From: Chitinophagaceae bacterium
GTDB taxonomy: Bacteria > Bacteroidota > Bacteroidia > Chitinophagales > Chitinophagaceae
Assembly: GCA_046296295.1 (NCBI GenBank)
Contig: JBKBLG010000004.1
Span: forward strand, 60,187 to 124,186
DNA: 64,000 nucleotides
Reading direction: 5' to 3'
This document shows, piece after piece, positions 25,326-34,013 of this stretch. Position 1 is the stretch's first letter. The number at the start of each line of letters is the position of its first letter. The notes beneath the pieces were generated by a model. It saw only the letters and a program-made list of their open reading frames with translations, was not told the origin of the DNA and ran no database searches. The position numbers and the translations under genes are program-made.

Positions 25326-26990
25326 ATGGCAAAACAAAAAGCGACCCTTCGACAGGCTCAGGGTAAAAACGAAGAACCCCTCGAAAAACAACTCTGGAAA
25401 GCAGCCGACAAACTCCGCAAGAACATTGATGCTGCGGAATACAAACACATTGTATTGGGGTTAATCTTCCTGAAATATATCTCCGATGCTTTTGAAGAAT
25501 TGTATGCAAAACTAAAAGCAGACGAAGCCAACGGTGCAGACCCCGAAGACAAAGACGAATACAAAGCAGAAAATGTGTTCTTTGTACCGCAGGATGCCCG
25601 ATGGAATTATTTGCAATCGAAAGCCAAACAACCTGAAATCGGAAAGTTTGTGGACGATGCCATGGATGCTATTGAAAAAGAAAATGCTTCCCTCAAAGGC
25701 GTGTTGCCCAAGGTATATGCCCGACAAAATTTGGACCCGACAAGTTTGGGTGAACTGATTGACCTGATTGGCAACATTGCCTTAGGCGATGCCAAAGCAA
25801 GAAGTGCCGATGTGCTCGGACACGTTTTTGAATATTTTCTGGGTGAGTTTGCCTTGGCAGAAGGCAAGAAAGGCGGACAGTTCTACACGCCAAGAAGCGT
25901 GGTGGAATTATTGGTGGAGATGCTGGAACCCTACAAAGGACGAGTGTTTGACCCTTGCTGTGGTTCGGGTGGAATGTTTGTGCAGAGCTTGAAATTTGTT
26001 GATAGCCATGCAGGCCGTGTAAACGATATCTCCATTTACGGACAAGAGAGCAACCAAACCACCTGGCGACTGGCTAAAATGAACCTGGCCATTCGTGGCA
26101 TTGATAGCTCACAGGTGAAATGGAACAACGAAGGTTCTTTCTTAAACGATGCACACAAAGACCTGAAAGCTGATTTTATAATTGCCAATCCACCGTTTAA
26201 TGTGAGTGATTGGGGCGGTGAATTGATGCGGAATGATGGACGTTGGCAATACGGCATACCACCCACAGGCAACGCCAACTTTGCCTGGATGCAACATTTT
26301 ATTTACCACTTAGCACCCAACGGACAAGCTGGTGTGGTGTTGGCAAAAGGTGCTTTGACCTCTAAAACCTCAGGCGAAGGCGAGATTAGAAAAGCACTGG
26401 TTGAAAACGGCTTGATTGATTGCATTGTAAACCTACCGGCCAAATTGTTTTTAAATACCCAGATTCCTGCTGCCTTATGGTTTATGAGCCGCAACCGTAA
26501 AAACGGAAAATTCCACCACCCCGCCACCACAGGTGGCACCCCTCCACGGGAGGGGAATTTTCGAGACCGCAGCAACGAGATTTTATTTATTGATGCCCGC
26601 AACTTGGGCCATTTGATCAACCGCAGAACCCGTGAACTCTCACCAGAAGACATTGCCAAAATTGCCGGCACTTACCACGCCTGGAGAAATTCCCCTCCTT
26701 TGGAGGGGGCAGGGGGTGGTCAATTCCCCCCCACTGGAGGGGTGCCCGAAGGGCGGGGTGGTTACGAAGACATCCCCGGCTTTTGTGCCTCCGCCCCCAT
26801 CAGCAAAGTGAGAGAACTCGACTATGTGCTTACACCGGGCCGCTATGTAGGCTTACCCGATGAAGAAGACGACTTCAATTTTGCCGAACGCTTTACCTGC
26901 TTAAAAGCAGAACTGCAAGCACAGATGGCAGAGGAAACAGAATTAAACGATAGAATCAAAAGGAACTTGCATAAAATTCAAATTATCTAA
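25326..26990 (+). CDS. hsdM: Type I restriction-modification system methyltransferase subunit M (with in-frame repeat insertions)
   Basis: HsdM N-domain [37 protein letters not shown] motif [10 protein letters not shown] and catalytic [17 protein letters not shown]-like sequence upstream. Confidence 0.95.
26515..26559 (-). repeat. GC-rich palindromic REP-like unit, reverse orientation, in frame in hsdM
   Basis: ACCACCCCGCC...CCCCTCC-acg-GGAGGGGAATT, translated as [15 protein letters not shown]. Confidence 0.85.
26688..26762 (+). repeat. REP-like unit doublet, forward, in frame in hsdM
   Basis: AATTCCCCTCC-ttt-GGAGGGG... plus AATTCCCCCCC-act-GGAGGGGTGCCCGAAGGGCGGGGTGGT, translated as [25 protein letters not shown]. 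Confidence 0.9.
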
Positions 26991-27001
26991 TTTTCAATAA
27001 A

Positions 27002-27922
27002 ATGAACTACGACATAAAACTCATTAATAATTTCGAAGGTAAAGGGCGTATTGAACTTGACCGAATGGAATTTTTGGCAAAGCACATAAAAAGCATTGCT
27101 CAAAAGGCTTTACTGCTGCAACTCTATGGCTATAGTAAGGTTTCAATGCCAAAGAACTTAAATAAATATCTGCATGTATTTCTAACACAAACTGCCGGGG
27201 TTGATGGTAATACTATTCTCACGTTGGATGCAGATAATTTTCAAAATATCCTAGTACAGTTAGATTTATTTAAAGAGAAACAAGCTCTAAATACACTTAC
27301 ACCAATGGCTTTAGTGATTAAGTCATTCACTGCTGCATTATATGATGAAGAAGATAAAAATATGATTGATGAACCGCTTATTGATGAATTATTAAAGTTT
27401 AAAAAGTTTTTTCAAACTGATACAGAAAAAGTATTACTTACTAACCGGAGTACAATACCGGAAATTGAATTTTCTCGAAAAGAAATAGATAAAATCGAGA
27501 GCTTATTTAAAACAATACCACAACCACAAAAAACAGTGGTAGCCGGTGTGATTGATGAAATGAAGTTTTCAAGAGAGCAGGTAATTTTAACTACCACTGA
27601 AAATAAAAAGATAGTAGTAATTGTTGCCAAGGAGCTTTTTCAAGACTTAAAGGAGTTTTTTGGACAGGAAATAGCCATCAATGGAATGGCTCATTTTAAG
27701 CCGGGAGGGCAATTATCGTATGTTAAAATGGAAAGCTTTGGCAATGCGGGGAAAGCCGCAAAAATATTATCAAGAAAGCCGGATAAAATGAACATGCAAC
27801 AGCAGATTGCTTTACAAATCAGAGAAGGGAAAAAACGAAATCCAATGGATGAAATCATTGGAACATGGCCCGGAAATGAGACAGACGAAGAATTTGAGAA
27901 AATGCTAAAAGACCTTGACTAA
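27002..27922 (+). CDS. Hypothetical 306-aa protein, putative partner or antitoxin of the downstream PIN nuclease
   Basis: No motif recognised. Its stop overlaps the PIN start (TAATG). Acidic C-terminal tail IIGTWPGNETDEEFEKMLKDLD. Confidence 0.6.
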   Translation: MNYDIKLINNFEGKGRIELDRMEFLAKHIKSIAQKALLLQLYGYSKVSMPKNLNKYLHVFLTQTAGVDGNTILTLDADNFQNILVQLDLFKEKQALNTLTPMALVIKSFTAALYDEEDKNMIDEPLIDELLKFKKFFQTDTEKVLLTNRSTIPEIEFSRKEIDKIESLFKTIPQPQKTVVAGVIDEMKFSREQVILTTTENKKIVVIVAKELFQDLKEFFGQEIAINGMAHFKPGGQLSYVKMESFGNAGKAAKILSRKPDKMNMQQQIALQIREGKKRNPMDEIIGTWPGNETDEEFEKMLKDLD

Positions 27923-28374
27923 TGAAAAACATACTTTTAGACACAAATATCCTCATACACTTAAATAGAGGAAAGGAAAAAGCTCAAAAGGTTCGTGAAT
28001 ATGTGGCGAGCTTAAGCGAACCACAAGTATTTATTTCTGTGGTGAATTTAGCTGAAGTGGAAAGTTTGGTTGTGCAATGGAAAATGCCTGATGAAGCTGT
28101 TAAACGACTTAGGAGCAATATGAACAAATTTGTGTGTATTGATATTGAGCAAAATAATCAGGTTCTGTTAGACGCTTATGTAAATATCGATTGCTACAGC
28201 AAGAGAAAAATTAAAGGACCTGATGGCAAACTTATTCCAAATGGTGCAATTGGAATGAAGAAGAACGACCTCTGGATTGCAGCTACAGCCCATGCTTTAG
28301 ATGCCGTGTTACTTACCACCGATGGAGATTTTGACCACTTAGAAAACCTATATTTTGAACTTAAGAAGTTTTAG
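27922..28374 (+). CDS. PIN-domain nuclease (VapC-like)
   Basis: Conserved acidic positions in ILLDTNILI, NLAEVES, NDLWIAATA and LLTTDGDF, typical of VapC-type PIN toxins. Confidence 0.8.
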   Translation: MKNILLDTNILIHLNRGKEKAQKVREYVASLSEPQVFISVVNLAEVESLVVQWKMPDEAVKRLRSNMNKFVCIDIEQNNQVLLDAYVNIDCYSKRKIKGPDGKLIPNGAIGMKKNDLWIAATAHALDAVLLTTDGDFDHLENLYFELKKF

Positions 28375-28375
28375 C

Positions 28376-29557
28376 ATGAGTGAGTGGAAAGAATATAAAT
28401 TAAAAGATTTGGGAAGAGTTGTTACAGGCAATACTCCATCAAGTAAATTTCCTGAAGAATTTGGAAATGAAATGCCGTTTGTAACACCTTCTGATTATAA
28501 AAATTATAACAAGTGGATTTCGTTTGCTGATAGAAATTTATCTCAAAAAGGAATTGAGAAGTTACAAAGCCGTTTGCTACCTAAAAATTCATTGCTTGTT
28601 ACTTGCATTGGTTCAGATATGGGAAAAGTTGCAATCAATAAAATCCCTGTTATTTCTAATCAGCAAATCAATTCAATAATTCCAAATGAAAATGTTGATG
28701 CTGATTTTCTATACTACAAATTAGTTGAGAGCTATGATGTTTTGAGAATGTATGGAGAAGCAGGAACAGCAGTTCCGATAGTAAATAAGACAGATTTTGA
28801 AAACATTGAAATAGAAATTCCTTCAGAAAAATCCGAGCAAACCGCCATAGCCGAAGTGTTAAGCAGCTTAGACGACAAAATAGACCTGCTGCACCGCCAA
28901 AACGCCACCTTAGAAAAAATGGCCGAAACGCTGTTTAGGCAGTGGTTTGTGGAGGAAGCGAAGGAGGAGTGGGAAGAAGGAACTTTAGATGATATCCTTT
29001 CTGTAAAAGGTGGAACAACCCCAAGTACCGCTGAACCTAGTTATTGGAATGGAACAATTCATTGGACAACACCAAAGGATATTACCAATTTAAACGGATT
29101 ATTTTTATTTGATACCGAAAGAAAAATAACAGAATTGGGCTTATCAAGAATCAGCTCTGGTTTGTTACCCATAGGAACACTCTTAATGACCTCAAGGGCA
29201 CCTGTTGGTGTATTAGCATTTGCAGAAATTCCGTTAGCTATAAATCAAGGTTATATCGCAATTATTGCCAACAAAGGCTATTCAAAAGAATTTATCTACC
29301 TCTGGCTAAAGACAAATATTGATGTAGTGCATAGTTTCTCTAATGGTTCAACTTTTATGGAGATTAGTAAGTCAACTTTTAAAACATTACAGCTACAGAT
29401 TCCTCCAAGTGATGTATTAAATAATTTTCAATCGATTGTAGCCCCCTTATTTACCAAAATAAAATCAAACTCAATCCAAATCCGCACCCTCACCGCCTTG
29501 CGGGATACCTTGTTGCCAAAGTTGATGAGTGGGGAGGTGAGGGTTGAAATGAATTAA
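28376..29557 (+). CDS. hsdS: Type I R-M specificity subunit S
   Basis: Two target-recognition domains are separated by the conserved helix LDDKIDLLHRQNATLEKMAETLFRQWF, and the protein ends in LRDTLLPKLMSGEVRV. The ATG lies 1 nt after the PIN stop. Confidence 0.9.
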   Translation: MSEWKEYKLKDLGRVVTGNTPSSKFPEEFGNEMPFVTPSDYKNYNKWISFADRNLSQKGIEKLQSRLLPKNSLLVTCIGSDMGKVAINKIPVISNQQINSIIPNENVDADFLYYKLVESYDVLRMYGEAGTAVPIVNKTDFENIEIEIPSEKSEQTAIAEVLSSLDDKIDLLHRQNATLEKMAETLFRQWFVEEAKEEWEEGTLDDILSVKGGTTPSTAEPSYWNGTIHWTTPKDITNLNGLFLFDTERKITELGLSRISSGLLPIGTLLMTSRAPVGVLAFAEIPLAINQGYIAIIANKGYSKEFIYLWLKTNIDVVHSFSNGSTFMEISKSTFKTLQLQIPPSDVLNNFQSIVAPLFTKIKSNSIQIRTLTALRDTLLPKLMSGEVRVEMN

Positions 29558-29562
29558 AAAAT

Positions 29563-30141
29563 ATGCAGCAATACAATCCAAATATTCACCATCGCAAATC
29601 CATCCGTTTAAAAGGATACGATTATACGCAGGCAGGATTGTATTTTATTACCATTTGTTGTAACCGTGGGGGCGAATTGCATTCGCCCTTTGGATACATC
29701 GAAAACGGACAAATGATATTGAATGAATACGGACAAATTGCCTATAATGAATGGATGAAAACCCCGGAAATACGACCGAATGTTGAATTGGGGGCATTCA
29801 TCATAATGCCCAACCACATGCACGGTATTATCCGGTTATTGGGTAGGGGCGAATTGCATTCGCCCAATGAAACGGGCATATACGATATGCCCGAACCGCC
29901 CGATAATGGGGGCGTTTGCAAAACGCCCCTACAGTCACCATCACAAACCGTTGGTGCCATTGTTCGTGGTTACAAATCATCGGTTACCAAACGATTGGGT
30001 TTGTTGGGATTCAATGGCAAATTATGGCAACGCAATTATTACGAACACATCATTCGCAACGAACTATCCTATCAAAACATTTCGAATTACATCATCAACA
30101 ATCCTGCAAAATGGCAGGAGGATAAATTTTTTATTGCATGA
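29563..30141 (+). CDS. IS200/IS605-like Y1 (HUH) transposase, REP-associated tyrosine transposase (RAYT)-like
   Basis: HRKSIRLKGYDY..AGLYFITIC, HUH motif MPNHMHGII, and catalytic Tyr region GKLWQRNYYEHIIRNE. No IS ends are visible. The stop overlaps the hsdR start (ATGA). Confidence 0.8.
   Translation: MQQYNPNIHHRKSIRLKGYDYTQAGLYFITICCNRGGELHSPFGYIENGQMILNEYGQIAYNEWMKTPEIRPNVELGAFIIMPNHMHGIIRLLGRGELHSPNETGIYDMPEPPDNGGVCKTPLQSPSQTVGAIVRGYKSSVTKRLGLLGFNGKLWQRNYYEHIIRNELSYQNISNYIINNPAKWQEDKFFIA
29668..29688. repeat. Palindromic hairpin GGGGCGAATTGCATTCGCCC inside the RAYT ORF (copy 1)
   Basis: Identical 20-mer at 29846-29865. Translated in frame as GGELHSP. Confidence 0.85.
29846..29865. repeat. 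Palindromic hairpin GGGGCGAATTGCATTCGCCC inside the RAYT ORF (copy 2)
   Basis: Exact repeat of copy 1. Translated as GRGELHSP. Confidence 0.85.
29909..29929. repeat. Second type of palindromic hairpin (GGGGCGTTTgcaAAACGCCCC) inside the RAYT ORF
   Basis: Imperfect palindrome translated as GGVCKTPLQ, in the variable region between the HUH motif and the Tyr motif. Confidence 0.7.
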
Positions 30142-33100
30142 CCCGCATCAACGAAAATACCATAGAATCCTTTGCCATCGAGTTGCTCGAAAAACTTGGT
30201 TATGCGTATATCTATGCTCCTGATATTGCACCCGAATTCTCCTCCTTTGGAGGGGTGGTCGCAGACCGGGGTGGTCAATTCCCCTCCAATGGAGGGGTGC
30301 CCGAAGGGCGGGGTGGTCAAGATACCCGCGACAGCTATGCACAGGTTTTGTTATTGAACCGATTGCAAAATGCCGTAAAAAGAATCAATCCCGGTATTCC
30401 GGCCGATGCACAGGCAGAAGCCATCAAAGAAATTCAGCGTATTGCCTCACCTGATTTGCTTGCCAACAATGAAACCTTTCATCGTTTATTAACCGAAGGT
30501 ATTCCCGTTTCAAAACGTGTGGATGGAGACGACCGGGGCGACAGAGTTTGGCTGATAGATTTTAAAAATCCGCACAACAACGATTTTGTGGTAGCCAATC
30601 AATTCACCATCATTGAAAACGGAAACAACAAACGACCTGATGTAATTCTTTTTGTGAATGGAATTCCGTTGGTGGTCATCGAACTAAAAAATGCAGCAGA
30701 CGAAAACACCACCATCCATTCAGCCTTCAAGCAAATAGAAACGTATAAAGCCATCATTCCAAGCCTGTTTACTTACAATGGTTTTGTAGTTATTTCAGAT
30801 GGTCTGGAAGCCAAAGCAGGTTCCATCTCTGCGGGCTTTAGTCGTTACATGGCTTGGAAATCGGCTGACGGCAAAGCCGAAGCGTCGCATTTGGTGAGTC
30901 AGTTAGAAACCTTGATTCAAGGCATGCTGAACAAAGCAACCTTGATTGACTTAATCAGGCATTTCATTGTTTTTGAAAAAACTACAAAGCAAGAAAATCA
31001 TGGGAATCATGAAATCAAGCAAATCACGGTTCAGACAACTAAAAAATTAGCAGCTTATCATCAATACTATGCAGTAAACAGAGCCGTTGAATCAACACTT
31101 CGTGCAGCAGGATTTAATTCCCCTCCTTTGGAGGGGTGGTCGCAGACCGGGGTAGTTCATTCCCCTCCTGCGGAAGGATGGCAGACGCAGTCTGACGGGG
31201 TGGTAAAAAGAGCCAGTAAAAACTACTTCGAACTTCCCTACAACCCTAAACTCAAAGAAAGGGCAAGAGAACTTCGACAGGCAGGAAATCTATCGGAAGT
31301 ACTTTTCTGGAATCAGGTGAAGAACAAACAATTTAAAGGCTTCGATTTCGACAGGCAGAAAATCATAGGAAACTACATTGTTGACTTTTATTGCAGTAAT
31401 TGCCAGGTGGTAATTGAAATTGATGGCTGTAGTCACGATGATAAGGTGGAATATGATGCGGAAAGGGATTCCTATTTAAACTCCTTGGGATTGACTGTTA
31501 TTCATATTCCCGTAGCAGATGTATTGCAGCGAATGGGAAGTGTGATGGAAATGCTTTCTAACCACCCCGCCTTGCAGGCACCCCTCCAAGGGAGGGGAAT
31601 TGACCACCCCGCCCTATCGGGAACCCCTCCTGAGGAGGGGAATTTGGTGCAGGAATCACCCAAAAGTTATGGCCTGCCCGGAGTGAAGAACCAACCTATT
31701 GGCGATAAAAAGGGCGGCGTTGTTTGGCATACGCAGGGGAGCGGAAAATCATTATCCATGGTTTTCTACACAGGGAAAATCGTTTTGGCTTTAGATAATC
31801 CAACAGTACTTGTTATTACAGACCGCAATGATTTGGACGACCAACTGTTTGACACCTTTGCGGCATCGAAACAGCTATTAAGACAAGAGCCTGTTCAGGC
31901 AGAGGATAGAAACCATTTAAAAGAATTATTAAAAGTAGCCTCTGGCGGTGTGGTGTTTACAACCGTTCAGAAATTTCAACCCGAAGAAGGCAATGTGTAT
32001 GAATTACTCTCCGACAGAAAAAACATCGTCGTCATTGCCGATGAAGCGCACAGAACGCAATACGGCTTTAAAGCAAAAACCCTTGATGCCAAAGACGAAA
32101 AAGGAAATGTAGTCGGTAAGAAAATCGCTTACGGTTTTGCAAAGTATATGCGGGATGCCTTGCCCAATGCCACGTATTTAGGCTTTACAGGAACACCCAT
32201 TGAAAATACAGACGTAAATACTCCAGCAGTTTTTGGAAACTATGTGGACATTTACGACATAGCCCAAGCCGTTGAAGATGGCGCAACCGTTCGCATTTAT
32301 TACGAAAGCCGATTGGCAAAAGTGAACCTGAGCGAAGAAGGCAAACAATTAGTTGAAGAGCTTGACGATGAACTGGAACAAGAATTCCCCTCCTCTGGAG
32401 GGGTGGTCGAAGACCGGGGTGGTTCAAGAGCAAAAGCCAAATGGACACAGTTGGAAGCCTTGGTGGGCAGTGAAAACAGAATTAAGAACATCGCCAAAGA
32501 TATTGTTTCGCACTTTAGTCAACGACAGGAAGTATTTGAAGGCAAAGGAATGATTGTGTGCATGAGTCGCAGAATTGCAGCCGATTTATACGAAGCAATC
32601 ATTGCCCTAAAACCAGAATGGCATTCAGACGACTTAAACAAAGGGGCGATAAAAGTGGTCATGACTTCCGCATCATCTGACGGTCCGAAAATTTCTAAAC
32701 ATCATACCACCAAAGAACAAAGAAGAATACTCGCTGAAAGAATGAAAAATCCCGATAACGAATTACAATTGGTCATCGTTCGGGATATGTGGCTCACAGG
32801 TTTTGACGCACCAAGTATACACACCCTTTACATTGACAAACCAATGAAAGGACATAATTTGATGCAAGCTATTGCAAGAGTAAACCGTGTTTACAAAGAC
32901 AAGCCGGGCGGTTTGATTGTAGATTATTTAGGTATTGCAGCCGATTTGAAAAAAGCACTGGCCTTTTATTCTGATGCAGGTGGAAAGGGCGACCCAACCA
33001 TTTTGCAGGAACAAGCCGTTCAATTGATGTTAGAGAAACTGGAAGTTGTTTCTCAAATGTTTAATGAACTCCCCTCCCGTGGAGGGGTGTCTGCAGGACG

Positions 33101-34013
33101 GGGTGGTTTTCCGTATGAAAGCTACTTTCAAGCCGACACTTCAAAAAAACTATCCATGATTCTGGCAGCAGAAGAGCACATTTTAGGATTGGAAGATGGA
33201 AAGAAGCGATACATCAACGAAGTAACAGCATTGTCAAAAGCCTTTGCCATTGCCATTCCGCATGAGCAGGCAATGGATGCAAAAGACGAAGTTTCTTTTT
33301 TCCAAGCCGTAAAAGCAAGATTGGCAAAGTTTGACGGAACAGGTTCAGGGAAAACAGACGAAGAAATTGAAACCACCATTCGCCAAGTCATTGACAAAGC
33401 GCTGGTCTCTGAACAGGTCATTGATGTTTTTGATGCCGCAGGAATAAAAAAACCAGATATTTCAATTTTATCCGAAGAGTTCTTAATGGAACTCAAAGGA
33501 ATGGAACACAAAAATGTGGCCTTGGAAGTTTTGAAAAAACTCTTGAACGATGAAATAAAATCAAGAGCCAAAAAGAACCTGGTTAAGAGCAGGACATTCT
33601 TAGAAATGTTAGAAAACTCCATCAAGAAATACCACAACAAAATCCTGACAGCAGCCGAAGTAATTGAAGAACTCATCAATCTTAGTAAAGAGATTGTTGA
33701 AATGGACAATGAAGCCAAGCACATGGGCTTGTCAGACTTTGAATATGCTTTTTACACCGCAGTAGCCAGCAACGACAGCGCAAGAGAACTCATGCAACAA
33801 GACAAATTGAGAGAACTTGCCGTAGTGCTGACAGAAACCATAAGACAAAACGCATCCATTGACTGGACCATTAAAGAAAGTGTAAAAGCTAAATTGAAAG
33901 TTGCAGTAAAAAGAATATTGAGAAAATACGGTTATCCGCCCGACATGCAAATGTTAGCTACAGAAACCGTTTTAAAACAAGCCGAAATGATCGCAAACGA
34001 AATAACGGCATAA
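30138..34013 (+). CDS. hsdR: Type I restriction enzyme subunit R (1291 aa, expanded by in-frame insertions)
   Basis: N-terminal PD-(D/E)xK block DVILFVNGIPLVVIELK, helicase motif I GGVVWHTQGSGKS, motif II VVIADEAHRTQ and motif VI LMQAIARVNR. About 250 extra residues come from repeat units and a DUF559-like module. Confidence 0.95.
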   Translation: MTRINENTIESFAIELLEKLGYAYIYAPDIAPEFSSFGGVVADRGGQFPSNGGVPEGRGGQDTRDSYAQVLLLNRLQNAVKRINPGIPADAQAEAIKEIQRIASPDLLANNETFHRLLTEGIPVSKRVDGDDRGDRVWLIDFKNPHNNDFVVANQFTIIENGNNKRPDVILFVNGIPLVVIELKNAADENTTIHSAFKQIETYKAIIPSLFTYNGFVVISDGLEAKAGSISAGFSRYMAWKSADGKAEASHLVSQLETLIQGMLNKATLIDLIRHFIVFEKTTKQENHGNHEIKQITVQTTKKLAAYHQYYAVNRAVESTLRAAGFNSPPLEGWSQTGVVHSPPAEGWQTQSDGVVKRASKNYFELPYNPKLKERARELRQAGNLSEVLFWNQVKNKQFKGFDFDRQKIIGNYIVDFYCSNCQVVIEIDGCSHDDKVEYDAERDSYLNSLGLTVIHIPVADVLQRMGSVMEMLSNHPALQAPLQGRGIDHPALSGTPPEEGNLVQESPKSYGLPGVKNQPIGDKKGGVVWHTQGSGKSLSMVFYTGKIVLALDNPTVLVITDRNDLDDQLFDTFAASKQLLRQEPVQAEDRNHLKELLKVASGGVVFTTVQKFQPEEGNVYELLSDRKNIVVIADEAHRTQYGFKAKTLDAKDEKGNVVGKKIAYGFAKYMRDALPNATYLGFTGTPIENTDVNTPAVFGNYVDIYDIAQAVEDGATVRIYYESRLAKVNLSEEGKQLVEELDDELEQEFPSSGGVVEDRGGSRAKAKWTQLEALVGSENRIKNIAKDIVSHFSQRQEVFEGKGMIVCMSRRIAADLYEAIIALKPEWHSDDLNKGAIKVVMTSASSDGPKISKHHTTKEQRRILAERMKNPDNELQLVIVRDMWLTGFDAPSIHTLYIDKPMKGHNLMQAIARVNRVYKDKPGGLIVDYLGIAADLKKALAFYSDAGGKGDPTILQEQAVQLMLEKLEVVSQMFNELPSRGGVSAGRGGFPYESYFQADTSKKLSMILAAEEHILGLEDGKKRYINEVTALSKAFAIAIPHEQAMDAKDEVSFFQAVKARLAKFDGTGSGKTDEEIETTIRQVIDKALVSEQVIDVFDAAGIKKPDISILSEEFLMELKGMEHKNVALEVLKKLLNDEIKSRAKKNLVKSRTFLEMLENSIKKYHNKILTAAEVIEELINLSKEIVEMDNEAKHMGLSDFEYAFYTAVASNDSARELMQQDKLRELAVVLTETIRQNASIDWTIKESVKAKLKVAVKRILRKYGYPPDMQMLATETVLKQAEMIANEITA
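30235..30318 (+). repeat. Tandem doublet of 42-nt REP-like units, in frame in hsdR
   Basis: AATTCTCCTCCtttGGAGGGGTGGTCGCAGACCGGGGTGGTC plus AATTCCCCTCCaatGGAGGGGTGCCCGAAGGGCGGGGTGGTC. Each is 42 nt (14 codons). Translated as [29 protein letters not shown]. Confidence 0.95.
31116..31204 (+). repeat. REP-like unit doublet (forward), left flank of the DUF559 cassette
   Basis: AATTCCCCTCCtttGGAGGGGTGGTCGCAGACCGGGGTAGT plus a more diverged second unit ending GACGGGGTGGT. Translated as NSPPLEGWSQTGVVHSPPAEGWQTQSDGVV. Confidence 0.9.
31205..31559 (+). other. DUF559 (Vsr-like PD-(D/E)xK endonuclease-fold) module embedded in frame in hsdR
   Basis: ELPYNPKLKERARELRQ...SEVLFWNQVKNKQFKGFDFDRQKIIGNYIVDFYC....VVIEIDGCSHDDKVEYDAERDSYLNSLGLTVIHI matches the standalone DUF559 protein pattern (R.LR..T.aE..LW...FrRQ..ig.yivDF.c....lviElDG..H...yD..R...L...G..v). 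Confidence 0.8.
31560..31644 (-). repeat. REP-like unit doublet (reverse), right flank of the DUF559 cassette
   Basis: AACCACCCCGCC..CCCCTCCaagGGAGGGGAATT plus GACCACCCCGCC..CCCCTCCtgaGGAGGGGAATT. Translated as NHPALQAPLQGRGIDHPALSGTPPEEGN. Confidence 0.9.
32383..32423 (+). repeat. Single REP-like unit, in frame in hsdR
   Basis: AATTCCCCTCCtctGGAGGGGTGGTCGAAGACCGGGGTGGT, translated as EFPSSGGVVEDRGG. Confidence 0.9.
33067..33107 (+). repeat. Single REP-like unit (5' end diverged), in frame in hsdR
   Basis: AACTCCCCTCCcgtGGAGGGGTGTCTGCAGGACGGGGTGGT, translated as ELPSRGGVSAGRGG. Confidence 0.85.

Follow-up and report, generated by a model that had tools for sequence, protein, structure and literature searches.

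The window, that is the whole 64,000-nt stretch analysed here, is part of contig JBKBLG010000004.1 (positions 60,187 to 124,186) of a Chitinophagaceae bacterium, assembly GCA_046296295.1. It carries a type I restriction-modification (R-M) operon in which two coupled genes are nested between hsdM and hsdS. The first encodes a protein of 306 amino acids (aa), here called X306, and the second a VapC-like PIN nuclease. This pair, and the nature of X306 in particular, is the subject of the analysis. The features are the following, with those of the pair given before the neighbouring genes:

27002-27922, + strand: X306, 306 aa, member of an uncatalogued family and read as a long form of antitoxin-like protein; open reading frame (ORF) without a library match
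27002-27517, + strand: N-terminal alpha/beta domain of X306, aa 1-172; from the domain-only model and conserved columns
27527-27745, + strand: OB-like five-stranded barrel of X306, aa 176-248; from the secondary structure of the model and weak PDB OB-fold matches
27749-27919, + strand: disordered linker and acidic C-terminal tail of X306, aa 250-306; from low predicted local distance difference test (pLDDT) scores, isoelectric point (pI) and conservation
27860-27880, + strand: G-T-W-P-G-N-E motif in the X306 tail, the most conserved segment of the family
27920-27924, + strand: TAATG, in which the X306 stop and the PIN start overlap (translational coupling); from the sequence
27922-28374, + strand: VapC-like PIN nuclease, 150 aa, predicted toxin/effector; Pfam PIN PF01850, E=1.1e-13
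25326-26990, + strand: hsdM, type I R-M methylase; Pfam N6_Mtase E=2.8e-103, HsdM_N E=9e-30
28376-29557, + strand: hsdS, specificity subunit; Pfam Methylase_S E=3.7e-53, protein begins MSEWKEYKL
29563-30141, + strand: RAYT-like (IS200/Y1 transposase-like) ORF, 192 aa, context and not part of the module; Pfam Y1_Tnp PF01797 E=8e-4, below the cut-off
30138-34013, + strand: hsdR, restriction subunit; Pfam HSDR_N, SWI2_SNF2, T1RH-like_C and DUF559

All genes lie on the forward strand in the order hsdM-X306-PIN-hsdS-(RAYT-like)-hsdR. The distance from the end of hsdM to the ATG of X306 is 11 nt, the stop codon of X306 (TAA, 27920-27922) and the start codon of the PIN gene (ATG, 27922-27924) have one base in common, and the TAG of the PIN gene ends at 28374, leaving 1 nt before the hsdS ATG at 28376. 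The first-pass annotation of this DNA had described the same layout (a 306-aa ORF, a TAATG overlap and a PIN gene stopping 1 nt before hsdS), and the ORFs and the sequence confirm it. The motifs it quoted, LLDTN, LAEVES, NDLWIAATA and TTDGDF as well as the tail IIGTWPGNETDEEFEKMLKDLD, were all found. The GC content of the block formed by X306, PIN and hsdS (27000-29400) is 32-38%, compared to 47-49% in hsdM (25500-27000) and 43-45% in hsdR (29700-33000). The low GC content suggests that the pair and hsdS were gained or exchanged together as a cassette.

Searches with X306 in Pfam, NCBIfam, PADLOC (E<=1), PHROGs and the PDB sequences gave no significant match. A Pfam search with 65 diverse members of the family returned zero family matches and nothing was found in PDB with the family profile, so the initial impression that the 306-aa protein has no recognisable motif or family is borne out by profile searches of these five collections. 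X306 is a real gene family and not a chance reading frame, because 195 homologues were recovered from a collection clustered at 90% identity (every one that bears a name is "hypothetical", and the majority of those listed span the full length) and a profile search of 1.84 billion representatives gave 699 clusters (50% identity) at E<=1e-3, 433 of them at E<=1e-10. Nearly all cluster members are 300-320 aa long. The protein of the window is 100% identical to a protein from a Chitinophagaceae metagenome-assembled genome. Reference genomes contain 210 stretches that code for a relative, mostly in Bacteroidota, and relatives at 23-27% identity are present in Verrucomicrobiota, Acidobacteriota, Planctomycetota, Myxococcota, Gemmatimonadota and Calditrichota. 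A phage origin was considered and rejected; close relatives are not phage-borne, as tblastn against INPHARED phages gave no match and a scan of IMG/VR recovered no relatives. Both the family, absent from all libraries tested, and its domain architecture are new.

To inspect the linkage of X306 to the PIN gene, the proteins of the window were compared by tblastn with 80 genome loci. A PIN homologue lies directly downstream of the X306 homologue at 73 of the 77 loci with at least 500 nt of downstream sequence. The four exceptions comprise one deletion, in which X306 abuts hsdS, one degenerate PIN and two orphan copies, one of which comes directly after a 1663-aa helicase/restriction-like ORF. 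PIN also directly follows the X306-like bodies in metagenomes (48 of the 53 that have enough downstream sequence, among the matches listed), and the linkage spans Bacteroidota to Planctomycetota, Acidobacteriota and Verrucomicrobiota. The stop/start overlap or a gap of a few nt is kept across 57 complete orthologous pairs. The coupling of the 306-aa protein to PIN, noticed at first in the window alone, is therefore a property of the family. Among the same 57 partners, the PIN residues D7, E45, D116 and D134 are 98-100% conserved, and because of this quartet the nuclease is expected to be active. The assignment as a VapC-like PIN protein holds as well, with a Pfam PIN match and an intact catalytic quartet. 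The VapC models of NCBIfam match only weakly, far below their cut-offs, and the nearest VapC in PDB has E=0.007; judged by these scores, the protein belongs to a divergent VapC-like clade.

The AlphaFold2 model of X306, built with 38 sequences, has a pLDDT of 79 and a predicted template-modelling (pTM) score of 0.73. It consists of an alpha/beta N-domain up to about aa 171, the barrel at aa 176-248, a disordered region at aa 250-294 and a terminal helix at aa 295-305; pLDDT is below 50 at aa 252-294. The N-domain modelled alone reaches a pLDDT of 88 and a pTM of 0.88. Structure prediction with a fold search, proposed as one way to identify the protein, gave a divided result. The strands of the barrel follow the OB order (b1-b2-b3, helix, b4-b5), and the PDB fold matches of the model are OB folds only, all of them weak (E 4e-3 to 5e-2, TM score relative to the target 0.4-0.67), namely RPA14/32, the anticodon-binding N-domain of LysRS, SSB, IF1 and YgiW. 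The N-domain has no counterpart in PDB by Foldseek (best E=0.36), and its faint resemblance to IS608 TnpA and other ferredoxin-like folds was dismissed as not significant on this same value. Positions conserved throughout the family are G43-x-S45, Q86 and D123 in the N-domain and G182 and G228 in the barrel, which also has the AHFKPGG loop. The most conserved segment of all, G287-x-W289-P290-G291-(D/N)-E293, lies in the tail. The last 23 aa have a pI of 4.05 in the window, which is also the median of the family, and the acidic C-terminal tail ascribed to the protein from its sequence is thus present.

This tail is also carried by proteins that lack the X306 body. We scanned the DNA of metagenome contigs for exact matches to G-K-W-P-G-D-E-(S/T) and obtained at least 120 loci with at least 107 motif-bearing ORFs. 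Among the matches listed, to which all counts of tail-only ORFs here refer, the motif ORFs comprised 54 X306-like bodies, 45 tail-only ORFs and 8 chance occurrences. The tail-only ORFs match the X306 profile at positions ~220-306 only, mostly at ~255-306. With at least 200 nt of downstream sequence available for 41 of them, 16 are followed directly by a PIN of the X306 clade, recognised with E-values of 1e-33 to 1e-49 by a hidden Markov model (HMM) built from the partners of X306; the number drops to 13 when two matches with E>=1e-5 and ORFs cut by contig ends are left aside. The same HMM does not detect an unrelated Pfam PIN protein in the data set. The short tail carriers measure 65-160 aa, and those coupled to PIN include proteins of ~65 aa that are largely tail (L112 and L152; L numbers are our labels for individual loci) and others of 86-119 aa. 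Also among the PIN-coupled carriers, the N-terminus of the L175 protein gave ribbon-helix-helix (RHH) matches below the threshold (NikA-like 1.9e-4, FitA-like_RHH 0.009, ParD 0.018, RHH_1 0.04), and that of L183 looks RHH-like by eye only, without a supporting match. A longer string, PQGP-SG-(I/L)-NA-(I/V)-x-G-x-WPGDE, is common to the short carriers and distant members of the X306 family.

Judging from these sequences, this is one PIN clade whose antitoxin-like partners all end in the same tail and differ in their exchangeable N-terminal bodies, and X306 is therefore best read as a long-form VapB-type antitoxin. That its tail is also that of short, antitoxin-like proteins belonging to the same PIN clade is new. 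Because the same tail occurs on such proteins encoded just ahead of PIN genes from this clade, it is very likely the part of X306 that recognises PIN. In the VapB/FitA architecture it is a C-terminal tail that binds and neutralises the toxin, and by this analogy the tail of X306 is probably also the part that restrains the PIN toxin. The first-pass annotation had suggested that the acidic tail could be the neutralising part; the presence of the tail on proteins of classical size upstream of the same PIN clade agrees with it, and the neutralising itself is suggested by comparison with known antitoxins.

Several other tail carriers were observed. Some tail-only ORFs precede toxin-antitoxin (TA) modules (Unstab_antitox, DUF433, MNT/HEPN, DUF2281+PIN) or phage-type genes (Lar, DUF4406), and some of those not followed by a PIN of the X306 clade may be remnants or have other partners. 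L140 (125 aa), L119 (150 aa) and L200 (76 aa) adjoin phage-type genes (Lar restriction-alleviation protein, DUF4406); these ORFs could be remnants, or phage proteins that imitate the antitoxin tail and so disarm PIN. Two HsdS-like proteins, L109:964-2397(-) and L147:33-809(+), end in the PIN-associated tail (...GRKRSPLAEFFGKWPGDETDEQVRRALEEMD). The tailed HsdS is followed by an MNT/HEPN pair in L109 and by a RAYT-like ORF and hsdR in L147, and no PIN is present in these two short contigs.

The surroundings of the pair were surveyed at 44 well-flanked loci, where the sequence extends for 2.5 kb or more upstream and for 3 kb or more downstream. Genes of hsd type are present at 20 of them (~45%), 17 times in the order hsdM-pair-hsdS, and loci of Flavobacterium, Verrucomicrobiota and Planctomycetota have the order pair-hsdM. 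The pair recurs in type I R-M operons far above chance, a point for which the first-pass annotation had proposed a neighbourhood survey. The remaining 24 loci have no hsd gene within ~6 kb. One orthologue stands alone, with a type I CRISPR-Cas locus at a distance of ~2.5 kb, and another is set among housekeeping genes. When 130 neighbouring genes at 20 loci without a detectable intact hsd gene were scanned with Pfam, the set proved heterogeneous and mostly housekeeping; the few defence genes in it were MmeI (twice), GmrSD (twice), RhuM (twice) and RadC (three times). Since more than half of the loci lie in housekeeping, CRISPR-Cas or other R-M surroundings without hsd genes, the pair is an autonomous module; it is mobile and strongly favours type I R-M operons, to which it has no obligate link. 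Two loci (L036:5747-5965 and L042:5685-5983) retain no more of hsdM than a C-terminal fragment directly upstream of the pair, which means either that the surrounding R-M operon has decayed or that the 3' end of hsdM was transferred along with the pair.

This distribution bears on the proposal, made from the window alone, that activation of PIN is coupled to the state of the R-M complex. X306 would then monitor the type I R-M complex (assembly of M2S1, anti-restriction proteins or loss of methylation) and free PIN when R-M is inhibited. The recurrence of the hsdM-pair-hsdS position across several phyla fits such a role, and the two HsdS proteins with a fused tail hint at attachment of the tail to R-M subunits. 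Against it stand the 24 well-flanked loci lacking hsd genes, the occurrence of close orthologues (61-66% identity) both with and without R-M, and the lack of a nearby PIN at the HsdS-tail fusions. Sensing of the R-M state is therefore not supported, as R-M genes are absent from the vicinity of over half of the loci, and we give this explanation a very slight probability.

Cassettes for TA and abortive infection, including PIN toxins, are already known from the inside of type I R-M operons. PIN toxins in these operons, sometimes "without antitoxin", were noted earlier (PMC5499597), and cassettes embedded in type I R-M operons predict a defence function (bioRxiv 10.1101/2024.01.29.577857). The same preprint reports HEC-03, an ABC ATPase with a VapC-like PIN that is a validated defence system embedded in Hma systems. 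Like the X306 pair, it joins a VapC-like PIN effector to a large partner other than VapB within another defence system, but the partner is an ABC ATPase, whereas X306 has no NTPase motifs or PADLOC match. The first-pass annotation had pointed to PrrC/RloC, anticodon nucleases embedded in type I R-M operons, as a precedent. This is an analogy of location only: both lie between hsd genes, and for both an RNase serving as backup by abortive infection is conceivable, but the pair consists of two proteins and is not restricted to R-M operons. Membership of the PrrC/RloC type was rejected because X306 has no ABC-ATPase or anticodon-nuclease (PrrC) domain in Pfam or PADLOC.

Reading X306 as a long-form antitoxin, the nearest known systems are VapBC and FitAB. 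In common with them, the pair has a PIN toxin with an acidic quartet and a partner gene immediately upstream, co-oriented and translationally coupled, the disordered C-terminal segment of the partner tracks the toxin clade, and short forms exist for the clade, one with a sub-threshold RHH-like N-terminus. The differences concern mainly the partner. PIN toxins usually pair with antitoxins of ~70-90 aa, and VapB-type antitoxins reach up to ~100 aa, whereas X306 has 306 aa. No AbrB, RHH, Phd/YefM or HTH DNA-binding domain was detected by Pfam in X306 or in the 65 family members, and in the place of such a domain X306 has the PDB-unmatched N-domain and the OB-like barrel. Also unlike typical VapC, its PIN stays far below the NCBIfam cut-offs.

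A possible relative of the X306 body came from the predicted viral structures of BFVD. Foldseek with the X306 model gave two matches over the whole length at E~7e-9, a DUF6575 protein and Q6NE06 of the Leptospira phage LE1, which we take to be LE1-0037 (gp37), matched on length only (381 aa). LE1-0037 comes after LE1-0038, a DUF4365 protein, with a gap of 2 nt. PADLOC identified gp37 as PDC-M02B (E=1e-64) and the upstream DUF4365 gene as PDC-M02A (E=6e-50), and the DUF4365 and M02B pair is conserved at three further loci. The PDC-M02 loci include L088:38735-40413(-), which is phage LE1, L089:5477-7104 and L090:5456-7116, with M02B of ~370 aa; outside LE1 the genes overlap and lie directly upstream of phage terminase genes or in the chromosome near a TIR-domain gene. 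An hhalign comparison of the X306 family with M02B-like proteins was collinear over 217 columns (E=7.5e-4). PDC systems are "guilt-by-embedding" candidates from BREX, DISARM and type I R-M (Payne et al. 2024, bioRxiv 10.1101/2024.01.29.577857), and the logic of embedding by which they were predicted is the same that flags the X306-PIN pair. DUF6575 is listed in a validated defence system of E. coli (Vassallo et al. 2022, PMC9519451). PD-T4-10 was rejected as a match, as the sizes and domains of its proteins differ and neither protein of the window fits the PD-T4-10 models of PADLOC.

Both X306-PIN and PDC-M02 consist of two overlapping genes for a small nuclease and a larger partner, and both cassettes occur embedded in defence or mobile contexts. 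They differ in the nuclease, which in PDC-M02 is the PD-(D/E)XK-like DUF4365 and not PIN, and in gene order, M02A being upstream of its partner whereas PIN is downstream of X306. PDC-M02B is also longer (~370-390 aa), with an extra N-terminal segment of ~90 aa relative to X306, and it lacks the WPGDE tail. The nuclease-first order of PDC-M02, unlike that of typical antitoxin-first operons, would suit another role of X306, that of a substrate-recruiting or activating subunit whose OB-like domain brings RNA or single-stranded DNA (ssDNA) to PIN in a two-subunit housekeeping or constitutive restriction-like nuclease. Conserved aromatic and basic residues in the AHFKPGG loop of the barrel would be in line with this, and PIN is combined with OB/S1 domains in RNA-processing enzymes such as Dis3/Rrp44. 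The upstream position of X306, the gene overlap and a tail common to 65-aa proteins without an OB domain favour neutralisation instead, and the patchy, mobile and island-linked distribution is unlike that of a housekeeping enzyme. A recruiting subunit seems improbable to us.

We lean, with moderate confidence, towards X306 and PIN being an autonomous, mobile VapBC-type TA-like module with a long-form antitoxin, here co-transcribed between hsdM and hsdS. The PIN protein would act as an effector nuclease that depends on metal and, like VapC, most likely cleaves RNA. The disordered tail of X306 (~55 aa, with G-x-W-P-G-D/N-E-S/T and an acidic amphipathic helix) would bind and block it, either through the W/P/G segment or through packing of the helix elsewhere, and the short antitoxins of the clade would do so with the same tail. 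The body of ~250 aa (N-domain and OB-like barrel) would replace the usual small DNA-binding domain, most likely as a regulatory or sensing platform for a ligand, a nucleic acid or a phage product. When the body is perturbed or degraded, PIN would be released and the infection aborted. A linkage of the pair to defence is plausible, because it is frequently nested in R-M operons and its predicted fold resembles that of PDC-M02B.

Several points weigh against this interpretation. The binding, the neutralisation, the trigger and the defence function are all deduced from sequence. Of the 41 tail-only ORFs, 25 are not followed by a PIN of the X306 clade, so the tail is not exclusive to it. A search of PDB with the X306 tail profile gave no match, leaving the motif without a solved-structure precedent, and the tail is acidic while the catalytic pocket of PIN is acidic as well. 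Scans for promoters and terminators gave matches not above those of shuffled sequence, and since an autoregulatory promoter or operator was not found in this way, no operator is proposed. More than half of the loci lie outside recognisable defence contexts. The hhalign probability for X306 and M02B is only 25%, X306 matches no PDC-M02B HMM (PADLOC, E<=1), and the remote structural relationship of the two bodies comes mainly from predicted structures. PDC-M02 itself is a candidate defence system only, known by prediction.

Part of these observations would suit a plainer explanation, in which the pair is an ordinary addiction module acting by post-segregational killing, stabilising the R-M island or the mobile hsdS cassette, with no phage sensing and with the body serving oligomerisation or autoregulation. 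The pair stands on its own, frequently with housekeeping genes around it, the low GC content of X306, PIN and hsdS suggests a horizontally exchanged cassette, the same PIN clade has short-form antitoxins, and decayed copies and hsdM remnants exist. A two-domain body of 250 aa with uniform length in at least seven phyla, however, exceeds what a minimal antitoxin needs; the pair is also strongly enriched within type I R-M operons, and its body resembles the partner protein of another nuclease-based defence candidate. We regard a pure addiction role as unlikely.

The fold that X306 appears to have in common with PDC-M02B allows one hypothesis for the two candidate systems. Possibly, although we remain doubtful, the X306 body is a reusable infection-sensor module common to at least two nuclease-based immune systems, in which binding of a phage product causes PIN to be released or exposed and the infection to be aborted. 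M02B would control the DUF4365 nuclease, and in X306 the same body joined to a VapB-type tail would hold PIN. The trigger might be a phage ssDNA-binding protein, a replication intermediate or RNA. X306 would then resemble CapRel as a "fused sensor-antitoxin" made from previously undescribed domains.

If the long-form antitoxin reading is right, a widespread uncatalogued family (~700 clusters at 50% identity in at least seven phyla) would represent a new antitoxin architecture for PIN toxins. A portable tail of ~30 aa (G-x-W-P-G-D-E and the acidic helix) would provide toxin recognition, and an interchangeable N-terminal body regulation or sensing; this body would be absent in some proteins, a short uncharacterised region in others (one of them weakly RHH-like) and the 250-aa X306 body in the long form. 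Such proteins would form a natural series on how TA modules gain phage-sensing domains. The pair would be a further entry among the R-M-embedded defence candidates, and its predicted fold would link it to the candidate PDC-M02.

Some additional features of the operon and of related R-M loci were noted. GC-rich palindromic units (core AATTCCCCTCCnnnGGAGGGGTG; CCACCCCG...CGGGGTGG) are inserted in frame within hsdM (26518-26769) and hsdR (30235-30346, 31116-31185, 31552-31645, 32383-32452 and 33067-33089), where they encode extra peptide segments, e.g. SPPLEGWSQTGVV. X306, PIN and hsdS are free of these units. The RAYT-like ORF holds two copies of another palindrome, GGGGCGAATTGCATTCGCCC, at 29666-29688 and 29843-29865, and ORFs similar to it come after hsdS in L037, L038 and L147. 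A 19-kb type I R-M island (L082:1351-20525) has many cassettes embedded between hsdM and hsdR, namely two copies of ORF6N, WYL/WCX, an M41-like peptidase, a UPF0175/DUF3368 TA pair, X306-PIN and an AAA ATPase with an S8 peptidase. HsdR of the window contains a DUF559 (Vsr-like endonuclease) domain at aa 371-472 (~31248-31553), an insertion that separates the N-terminal nuclease region from the motor domain, and in L082 this domain is present in HsdM as well as in HsdR.

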